Both the position numbers and the translations under genes were made by a program. Positions 17,300 through 17,862 of a DNA stretch of 64,000 nt are shown piece by piece (within the stretch, counting starts at the first letter, position 1; each line of letters begins with the position of its first letter). Below the pieces are notes generated by a model that saw only the letters and a list, made by a program, of their open reading frames with translations, was not told where the DNA came from and searched no databases. This DNA is from a virus, in the IMG/VR virus record IMGVR_UViG_3300028829_002503; one strand, given 5' to 3'.

Positions 17300-17827
17300 A
17301 ATCATTATATTTTAATTACTTGTTCGGTTTGGAAGACACAATTGCCCATCCACTGGGCAACTGCAAATGAAACTTGTTCTTGCTCATCAGATTCTATGTC
17401 TAAGTTAGCCACTAGCAATGGCGAGGTCGGTTGACGATTCCCTCATAACTTAGTATTGCGTCTTTCGACTCAACGGCACCTCAATTAGTCTACATAGAAT
17501 AAAAATCTAATCGAAGTTGGTAGTGCTTTAAAACCTACCAGCGGTTTGTACATTTCTGTACGGTAAATACTAGTCATTCAATTACCTTTAGAGTAACGAA
17601 TGTTAAAATACGAAATATCTCTTTGTGGTTTACGAGAAGCAGTGTCGGATTTCACCCAACTTATCCGAACGTATGTATAATATACGCCCTCAATCCCGAG
17701 TCGGCAACCCGACTAACAGTTCCACTATGTATTGCCTTATTAGAATCATTATTAGCCTTAATATCTTTAGATTTTGTATCAGATTTGGGAATTTTTATTA
17801 GAATTATATCGATTTGTATTAGTTATG
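17300..17827 (-). ncRNA. Candidate large structured non-coding RNA (~500 nt)
   Basis: ORF-poor 700-bp gap with its own minus-strand promoter; nested long-range helices (17391-99 with 17492-500; 17400-07 with 17446-53); two GAAA tetraloops and G-U pairs that only work on the minus strand. Confidence 0.65.
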
Positions 17828-17833
17828 TTGAAC

Positions 17834-17862
17834 ATACTAACATAGTGGAAAAGGGATGTCAA
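17834..17862 (-). promoter_or_regulatory. sigma70-type promoter for the large RNA / GIY-YIG unit
   Basis: Minus strand: TTGACA (17862-17857), 17-nt spacer ending TG-T, TAGTAT (17839-17834). Confidence 0.8.

Follow-up and report, generated by a model that had tools for sequence, protein, structure and literature searches.

The 64,000-nucleotide (nt) stretch of viral DNA in IMG/VR record IMGVR_UViG_3300028829_002503 (hereafter the window, meaning this whole stretch) carries on its minus strand, from ~17827 to ~17318, a self-contained gene for a ~510-nt noncoding RNA (ncRNA), which we are confident represents a genuine and new family of structured ncRNAs. Comparative analysis of this region revealed covariation beyond that of shuffled and slid controls and no coding signal. 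With its clean alignment, assigned strand, boundaries, ~19 helix segments, and three covarying pseudoknots, it constitutes a well-supported new RNA class. On balance, we favor the view that the RNA probably works in trans as an independent molecule. Other products of the window are a gp55-like late sigma factor, gp46/gp47, a portal of the T4 type, and a major head protein. Because this head protein shares 68% identity with its counterpart in the Pseudomonas jumbo phage PA5oct (287 kb) and the baseplate-hub protein is ~33% identical at most to any cultured phage, we take the source to be an uncultured marine relative of the PA5oct/Rak2-like jumbo myoviruses.

The gene order on the minus strand is a baseplate-hub gene (18117-18965; Pfam T4_baseplate, earlier termed gp51), a 73-amino-acid (aa) open reading frame (ORF) in the -1 frame of the hub gene (17890-18111), a gap of ~720 nt, and a gene for a GIY-YIG nuclease (16735-17172). 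The gap extends from the stop of the 73-aa ORF (17890) to the start of the GIY-YIG gene (17172), and the earlier note had described it as poor in ORFs. In agreement with this, TAA, TAG, and TGA are all present in each of the six frames, so that no stop reassignment opens the gap. In the homologue alignment, variable columns show no three-base periodicity (78/74/71), indels of 1 nt (208) and 2 nt (55) outnumber those of 3 nt (40), and no conserved protein was found in the RNA region among the homologues. These six-frame stops and the absent codon periodicity rule out protein coding with either standard or recoded stops. Two short candidates were likewise rejected: relatives lose the start codon of a mini-ORF at 17275 (MEEINIEE...) and carry a 19-nt deletion in it, and a 23-aa ORF from the AUG at 17386 meets an early stop in relatives. 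The z-score of the minimum free energy relative to shuffles is -2.78 for the minus strand and -0.52 for the plus strand.

Motif scans recovered 65 loci in IMG/VR and at least 80 in metagenomes, and a further scan added 18 more divergent loci; at least 158 loci in marine viral and metagenome contigs, comprising ~75 distinct sequences, were confirmed with nhmmer. Matches to a 17-mer only (L067-L076) were set aside as chance. Two near-identical contigs (96% hub identity) show 2 differences in 17240-17940, as against ~2.7% in the flanking genes. In relatives with 60 to 70% hub identity, hub, gap, and GIY-YIG gene follow one another as in the window, with a nearly base-for-base alignment of the gap; the nucleotide identity of the RNA is 74 to 99%, while the hub protein is only ~60 to 68% identical. 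Taken together, such comparisons point to strong purifying selection on the RNA core, independent of its neighbors.

We derived the structure from an RNAalifold consensus of 35 sequences and from pair counts on 69 distinct sequences, using MAFFT-based alignments. The structured core (~395 nt, 17336-17730; this and all further coordinates of the RNA are on the minus strand) is closed by a terminal helix, P1 (ACAUA/UGUGU, 17730-17726/17340-17336), within which the ~19 helix segments form two multibranch domains and several hairpins. The 5' domain comprises P2 (17725-17722/17628-17625), P3 (17714-17709/17704-17699), P4 (17698-17694/17637-17633), P5 (17689-17683/17673-17667), and P6 (17660-17656/17648-17644), a GUUGG/CCGAC helix that covaries. 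It is followed by the hairpins P7 (17602-17597/17580-17575, with an inner hairpin P7a at 17594-17592/17586-17584), P8 (17561-17557/17552-17548), and P9 (17539-17534/17525-17519). The 3' domain comprises P10 (17497-17492/17399-17394), P11 (17469-17467/17462-17460), P12 (17453-17448/17405-17400), P13 (17444-17441/17426-17423), P13a (17437-17435/17429-17427), and P14 (17422-17419/17411-17408), and the core ends with the 3' hairpin P15 (17361-17355/17347-17341). P8 and P11 bear GNRA loops, and P8 is dispensable, its hairpin being absent in several clades. The unpaired strands at the junctions are extremely conserved (GUGCCGUUG, GAGGGAAUCG-Y-CAACCGACCUCGCC, and CGGGAUUGAGG).

Over the 95 proposed pairs, canonical pairing holds in 99.0% of the cells, and compensatory changes on both sides occur in 30 pairs (204 cells, a count that overstates the number of independent events because the sequences are phylogenetically related). 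When the 3' partners were slid by 1 to 3 columns as a control, only 31 to 44% of the cells were canonical and 3 to 5 pairs had double changes; in the 3' domain, 0 of 500 shuffles reached the observed values. The divergent clades contribute further covariation in helices that are otherwise invariant, with P13 changing from GAGG/CCUC to GGAG/CUCC and additional changes in P11, P14, P12, and P10. G-U pairs make up 9.5% of the paired cells, and canonical pairing drops from 99.0 to 89.8% if the opposite strand is read; hence, the RNA is the minus strand, as the earlier note had argued from the G-U pairs.

Most of the helices predicted from the single sequence survive this comparison. CUAUGU/ACAUAG, CUAAGU/ACUUAG, GCCAU/GUGGC, GUC-GNRA-GAC, AGUCGG/CCGACU, CGUAU/AUACG, GUACA-GAAA-UGUAC, and GGUAG/CUACC are all backed by compensatory changes. 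The outer two pairs of the predicted helix CUAAGUUA/UAACUUAG are unsupported. The GAGG/CCUC part of the predicted UGAGG/CCUCG helix is invariant in the main clade and is replaced by GGAG/CUCC in a divergent clade. One-sided G-U changes, with no double compensation, are the sole support for UUGCCCA/UGGGCAA. The predicted UCGGA/UCCGA hairpin is contradicted by uncompensated changes, and its place is taken by GUUGG/CCGAC, i.e., P6.

An all-against-all covariation scan, combined with inspection, identified three pseudoknots, and thus the proposed check for covariation among homologues came out positive both for 30 of the 95 pairs and for these three contacts. In PK1, the CUAG after P7 (17570-17573) pairs with the CUAG of the P14 loop (17415-17412); 64 sequences have CUAG/CUAG, four have CCAG/CUGG, and the reverse arrangement, CUGG/CCAG, is seen in L080, a copy from a different genomic context. 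In PK2, GUUGR (17470-17474) pairs with YCAAC of the P13a loop (17434-17430), and the R:Y pair is G-C in 41 and A-U in 28 of the 69 sequences, with no exception (25 versus 16 in alignment A2). In PK3, GAAAU of the P6 loop (17649-17653) pairs with AUUUC of the P2-P7 linker (17614-17610), and it occurs in three matched versions across clades, namely, GAAAU/AUUUC, GAAC/GUUU, and GAAU/AUUC.

The PK1 contact could equally well be intra- or intermolecular. This bears on the idea that the RNA is a self-assembling ornate RNA comparable to ROOL and GOLLD, i.e., an RNA-only homo-oligomer (a cage or ring) built through loop-loop contacts with the tail on the outside. A preprint offers a cryo-electron microscopy precedent for such assemblies (bioRxiv 10.1101/2024.12.08.627333). 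The same size class, the phage-borne setting, and the dense tertiary pairing would fit, and PK1, as a 4-bp contact of single-stranded sites that are mostly the palindromic CUAG, could form between molecules. However, neither sequence nor model comparison links the RNA to ROOL, GOLLD, or OLE, and sequence does not distinguish the two forms of PK1. We therefore regard self-assembly, which is compatible with action in trans, as distinctly unlikely.

The earlier note had proposed an undescribed large phage RNA, to be checked with Infernal cmscan against Rfam; since no family matches even at E ≤ 10, this is the right reading. At gathering thresholds over the whole window, Rfam 15 models of ROOL, GOLLD, OLE, HEARO, introns, RNase P, tmRNA, 6S, riboswitches, and ribozymes gave no match to the RNA. 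Searches of the locus at E ≤ 10 (1801 and 646 nt) and of four related loci returned only noise, such as RF_site6 (27 bits versus a cutoff of 90) and fragments of microRNAs and small nucleolar RNAs. ARAGORN found no tRNA or tmRNA in the 64-kb window; together with the Rfam results, this bears out the claimed absence of the hallmarks of tRNA, tmRNA, RNase P, and group I/II introns. Neither the whole gap nor, even at E ≤ 10, its most conserved 111 nt had a match in blastn searches of 50,697 phage records, and a scan for exact 25-mers gave 0 matches in the genomes of 185,579 prokaryote species. Our covariance model R1 recovered nothing credible from the complete genomes of PA5oct and the OM43 phage Melnitz, and nhmmer found no match in the syntenic PA5oct region or in the PA5oct ncRNA001/002.

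Several specific identities were considered and rejected. A group I intron has no Intron_gpI match, and the flanks are the stop of the 73-aa ORF with a promoter on one side and an AT-rich spacer with a separate gene on the other. A group II intron has no Intron_gpII or group-II-D1D4 match, and the gap holds no reverse transcriptase ORF. A tmRNA reading of ...CCUCGCCA was dismissed because its GCCAU pairs with GUGGC and the pairing covaries. For an RNase P reading of GAAUGACU...ACAGAA, there is no RNaseP_bact or archaeal match, and the ACAGAAA lies in the covarying P8 and is absent in several clades. A hammerhead reading of CUGAUGA (17390-17384, after P10) lacks stem II/GAAA, and the motif is lost in the divergent clades. 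More generally, the extreme conservation of the unpaired junction strands and the three pseudoknots, an order typical of ribozymes and large ribonucleoproteins (RNPs), could suggest that the core catalyzes self-cleavage, ligation, or some other reaction. Against this, no Rfam ribozyme model matches, CUGAUGA occurs without the other hammerhead elements and is not retained in divergent clades, and no conserved signature of a cleavage or splice site was seen in the RNA; accordingly, we assign a ribozyme only a very slight probability.

The core is preceded by a sigma-70-type promoter (17834-17862), with a -35 TTGACA (17862-17857), a 17-nt spacer, and an extended -10 TGT-TAGTAT (17842-17834), which would place the transcription start near 17827. 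The near-consensus minus-strand promoter noted earlier at 17862-17834 is upheld by its conservation, as the hexamers are near invariant and the spacer is variable in 32 of 35 aligned homologues. In two divergent clades, TTGCAA-N17-TATACT/TATAAT replaces the usual promoter. Similar promoters precede gp55, the portal gene, other genes of the window, and a manA RNA, and in most clades the RNA is predicted to be driven by such a near-consensus host sigma-70 promoter. The manA RNA motif itself (RF01745, 56.7 bits versus a gathering cutoff of 55.2) lies at 45296-45501 on the minus strand, and its promoter (45544-45516; TTGACA-N17-TATATT) is of the same type as that of the new RNA.

Between the promoter and the core lies a G-poor, unstructured 5' tail of ~100 nt (17731-17827) with CUAAUA boxes at 17822-17817, 17801-17796, 17755-17750, and 17743-17738 and a CUGAUA at 17782-17777. 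The boxes are strongly overrepresented here: four CTAATA (plus the CUGAUA) fall within 85 nt, as compared with 51 occurrences over the two strands of the window together (128 kb). Homologues show several boxes each (4 to 7 CUAAUA boxes reported across the family and up to ~6 among those shown), the spacers between them vary freely in length and sequence, and the corresponding box of the divergent clades is ACUAAUAU. RNAalifold predicted no consensus pairing in the tail across the 35 sequences. Several copies of one short motif in predicted single-stranded RNA are a feature of multisite sponges, and the anatomy of the tail is that of a putative multivalent platform for single-strand binding. 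Pairing of CUAAUA with UAUUAG ahead of gene starts was rejected, since ATTAG upstream of 4 of 42 genes (versus ~2 expected) is no enrichment.

We propose that the RNA probably forms a stable structured particle that acts in trans and is not a leader of the gene that follows. In this view, the compact core would be the functional body, which either binds a protein or ligand on its surface or self-assembles, and the repeat tail would offer multivalent landing sites where a factor specific for single-stranded RNA is recruited or sequestered in several copies. Candidate binders include ring or multi-OB proteins (such as Hfq, Rho, or S1), a RegA-like phage repressor, and a nuclease. This specific mechanism, with the tail as a sponge and the core as a body, is considerably more tentative than action in trans as such and, taken by itself, less likely than not.

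The same promoter and boxes could instead mark a replication origin, in which iteron-like 7-mers and an AT-rich stretch accompany a structured transcript that primes DNA synthesis; ColE1 RNA II (~555 nt) and T4 oriE are analogues of such priming. The strength of the promoter, the repetition of the boxes at ~11- to 27-nt spacing, the very AT-rich variable spacer directly after the core, and the nearby recombination genes gp46/gp47 are in line with this. Nevertheless, the box spacing has no helical phasing, the GC skew of the window merely tracks gene orientation, and the compensatory changes and G-U pairs indicate selection for RNA pairing across 395 nt, including the pseudoknots. We accordingly give an origin very little credence.

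At its other end, the RNA has a conserved 3' tail, CUUCCAAAC-CGAACAAGU (17318-17335), where homology reaches its limit: across all contexts, it stops shortly past CUUCCAAAC..CAAG(U) (17335-17318), and in the case of the L080 copy, it stops near position 594 of 660 of the nhmmer profile. Hence, the 3' end of the RNA probably lies at or just beyond 17318. The terminal GAACAAGU (17325-17318) duplicates a word before P15 (17379-17372), and the two copies of this ~10-nt word, AAC(N)xxxCAAG, change in concert between clades, with versions of the variable part including UAUCAAG, UGACAAG, GAACAAG, and GGGACAGA. No covarying complementary partner of the repeated word was found within the RNA in the main clade; in the divergent clades, each copy could instead base-pair with the 5' half of P15, in competition with P15 itself. 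This concerted pair suggests either two sites for a single trans partner or a conformational switch.

Beyond this limit, and outside the RNA proper, lies the leader of the downstream nuclease gene (17197-17317, minus strand), which consists of an AT-rich variable spacer, a AAATAAATA box (17269-17261) resembling the T4 late-promoter sequence TATAAATA, and two conserved hairpins (~17254-17223 and 17212-17197). The phage encodes its gp55-like late sigma factor at 11193-12062. The first hairpin survives the 19-nt deletion in three relatives (L009, L013, and L016), and the leader stays when the nuclease is of the PDDEXK type and is absent in L080. The arrangement of a late-promoter-like box, hairpins, and a nuclease start recalls the regulatory layout of T4 gene 49. 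We also observed that UAUUAG, directly 5' of the second hairpin, complements the CUAAUA boxes.

The nuclease itself (16735-17172, minus strand) is a 145-aa SegE-type GIY-YIG protein consisting of the catalytic domain only (Pfam PF19835, E = 1e-35). It is found downstream in 104 of 105 testable main-clade loci and is 80 to 100% identical at the amino acid level across 114 loci, in which the hub protein is 59 to 100% identical. In four of those main-clade loci (L023:5209-6417, L040, L116, and L151), a 402-aa radical-SAM ORF precedes it; this ORF, from one sub-lineage, bears a CNLACRTCGG motif and sits between the leader hairpins and the GIY-YIG gene. In all clades at 48 to 54% hub identity, the GIY-YIG gene is replaced by one for a 176- to 181-aa protein matching PDDEXK_15/phrog_244 ("RusA-like Holliday junction resolvase"; e.g., L129:1122-1667, L175, L165, L170, L172, L174, and L162), and a gene annotated as a RusA-like resolvase occupies the same neighborhood in PA5oct (L157:6542-7039). 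The exchange of GIY-YIG for PDDEXK looks like a nonorthologous displacement of a junction-resolving nuclease rather than the work of a homing endonuclease. The naming of the PHROG of the GIY-YIG protein as "NAD synthetase" is probably a misannotation. Its closest named homologue (78% identity) is from Melnitz, in whose complete genome the RNA was not found. Conversely, in L080 and L078, the RNA, its promoter, and its boxes lie between unrelated genes, with no hub gene or recognized nuclease nearby. As the RNA stays while the nuclease changes and also occurs in an unrelated context, we conclude that it is an autonomous module, of which the GIY-YIG nuclease is most simply a neighbor.

These observations bear on a cis-regulatory reading, in which a giant 5' untranslated region or intergenic operon element senses a signal and controls the downstream junction-resolving nuclease. 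In more than 120 loci, the RNA lies directly upstream of a small nuclease, of two unrelated folds, in the same orientation; no canonical terminator separates them, some clades have no promoter of their own, and in the divergent clades, words of the linker and 3' tail offer the 5' half of P15 an alternative partner. On the other hand, the RNA and its promoter are found without any recognized nuclease in L080/L078, a radical-SAM gene can intervene, the nuclease owns a conserved leader (a late-promoter-like box with two hairpins) that a variable AT-rich spacer sets apart from the core, and a 395-nt core with three pseudoknots far exceeds the known riboswitches. In light of these points, a cis-acting leader seems unlikely. 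Less probable again, and clearly speculative, is that the RNA is the RNA subunit of a new RNP enzyme, either with a catalytic core, which would make it a new large ribozyme class, or as the partner of the adjoining catalytic-domain-only nuclease. Were the latter true, GIY-YIG and PDDEXK would be interchangeable effectors, the variable part of the tail or the covarying 10-nt word pair would provide targeting, and the nuclease would be directed by RNA in a system with no relation to CRISPR, IscB, or TnpB.

Finally, a GIY-YIG gene after a structured RNA is also what phage group I introns present, and the locus might be a degenerate group I intron/homing-endonuclease cassette or, alternatively, a decayed or recoded protein gene. 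Yet neither Intron_gpI nor Intron_gpII matches, the flanks are a stop codon with a promoter and a spacer rather than exons, the GIY-YIG gene is fixed and highly conserved, and its counterpart in sister clades is a resolvase-like PDDEXK; a coding remnant is opposed by the lack of an open frame under any code and of codon periodicity. We give this pair of possibilities almost no weight.

Returning to the favored reading of an independent RNA acting in trans, four points weigh against it, in addition to the relatedness of the sequences behind the compensatory counts. The stretch that separates the RNA from the nuclease gene contains no canonical intrinsic terminator. Several divergent clades other than the two with an altered promoter have no recognizable promoter of their own, and therefore the RNA there must belong to the hub-to-nuclease transcript and could act in cis. 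CUAAUA fits poorly with the known preferences of Hfq (ARN), CsrA (GGA), and Rho (YC), and it is not known to agree well with the consensus of any other binding protein. Lastly, the start, 3' end, stability, and trans action of the RNA are all predicted from sequence.

The surroundings of the RNA show further features. The baseplate-hub gene has a probable programmed -1 ribosomal frameshift (18097-18129, minus strand): its zero frame reads GUA AAU UUU UCC UAG, in which A_AAU_UUU (18129-18123) is an in-frame X_XXY_YYZ heptamer, and a hairpin, GCUGG-N10-CCAGC (18116-18097), lies six nt 3' of it. The -1 frame reads stop-free into the 73-aa ORF, with a predicted fusion of ~355 aa. AAATTTTT and the hairpin are present in all 56 distinct variants (140 loci), and the zero frame stops within at most 5 codons (at TAG, TGA, or TAA). 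On the plus strand, a second strong promoter with a TG (16256-16284; TTGACA-N17-TAGTAT) faces the 3' end of the GIY-YIG gene. Its probable target is an ORF of 83 aa (16500-16751), which extends 17 nt past the GIY-YIG stop. This convergent gene of 81 to 83 aa is kept in relatives, and among close relatives, the 16250-16700 region is far more variable than the RNA. In PA5oct (NC_071039.1, ~75,670-77,180; L157:5030-6540), ~1.5 kb between the hub-side and RusA-like genes holds only annotated ORFs of 117 to 153 nt; this stretch, possibly noncoding, is not homologous to the new RNA and lies outside the four published PA5oct ncRNAs (PMC7318152).

With more than 150 contigs, the new RNA is widespread in marine samples. 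The jumbo phages that carry it depend on host RNA polymerase, which points to an unrecognized RNA-based step in the way abundant uncultured viruses of the ocean infect their hosts. The family can be retrieved, and its transcripts looked for in ocean metatranscriptomes, by means of the covariance model and motif patterns. To our knowledge, only a handful of bacterial or phage ncRNAs of more than ~400 nt have elaborate conserved tertiary structure (rRNA, RNase P, tmRNA, group I/II introns, OLE, GOLLD, ROOL, HEARO, and raiA), and all of them have proved to be either ribozymes, cores of RNPs, or RNA assemblies of a surprising kind.

The likeness in size class to ROOL, OLE, and HEARO, which the earlier note had drawn, is an analogy only. 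ROOL (RF03087) and GOLLD (RF01998) are likewise phage-associated RNAs of several hundred nt with many helices and tertiary contacts. They differ in that their covariance models do not match at E ≤ 10. Their hosts are Lactobacillales and rumen or lake phages, as opposed to marine jumbo myoviruses, and, unlike these RNAs, the new one has no tRNA in its 64-kb window and bears a single-stranded 5' tail with repeats. The HEARO/omega-RNA of IscB (RF02033) and other nuclease guide RNAs are similar in being large structured RNAs beside a small nuclease gene. However, no such model matches, the nuclease here is GIY-YIG or PDDEXK rather than IscB or TnpB, its family occurs without the RNA (Melnitz) and the RNA without the nuclease (L080), and the locus shows neither transposon ends nor an evident guide segment. 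The T4 td/I-TevI group I intron also combines a structured RNA with a following GIY-YIG ORF in a T4-like phage, but the new RNA has no exons or model match, has its own promoter and another pseudoknot topology, and is accompanied by a fixed and conserved GIY-YIG gene rather than a sporadic endonuclease.

CsrB/RsmZ and CrcZ are protein-sponge RNAs with many short single-stranded motifs, CrcZ having ~400 nt and six A-rich boxes. The new RNA resembles them in the multiple copies of a short single-stranded motif within one molecule; the GGA or AANAANAA boxes of the former are in hairpin loops, whereas the CUAAUA boxes are in a tail outside a pseudoknotted core. Closest in terms of the phage is PA5oct, which depends on the host RNA polymerase and makes the abundant promoter-driven long ncRNAs ncRNA001 and ncRNA002, of 236 to 451 nt (PMC7318152). 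These differ from the new RNA in being located in the terminal repeat region and in sharing no sequence or model similarity with it; phages of this group thus make abundant ncRNAs of a similar size.

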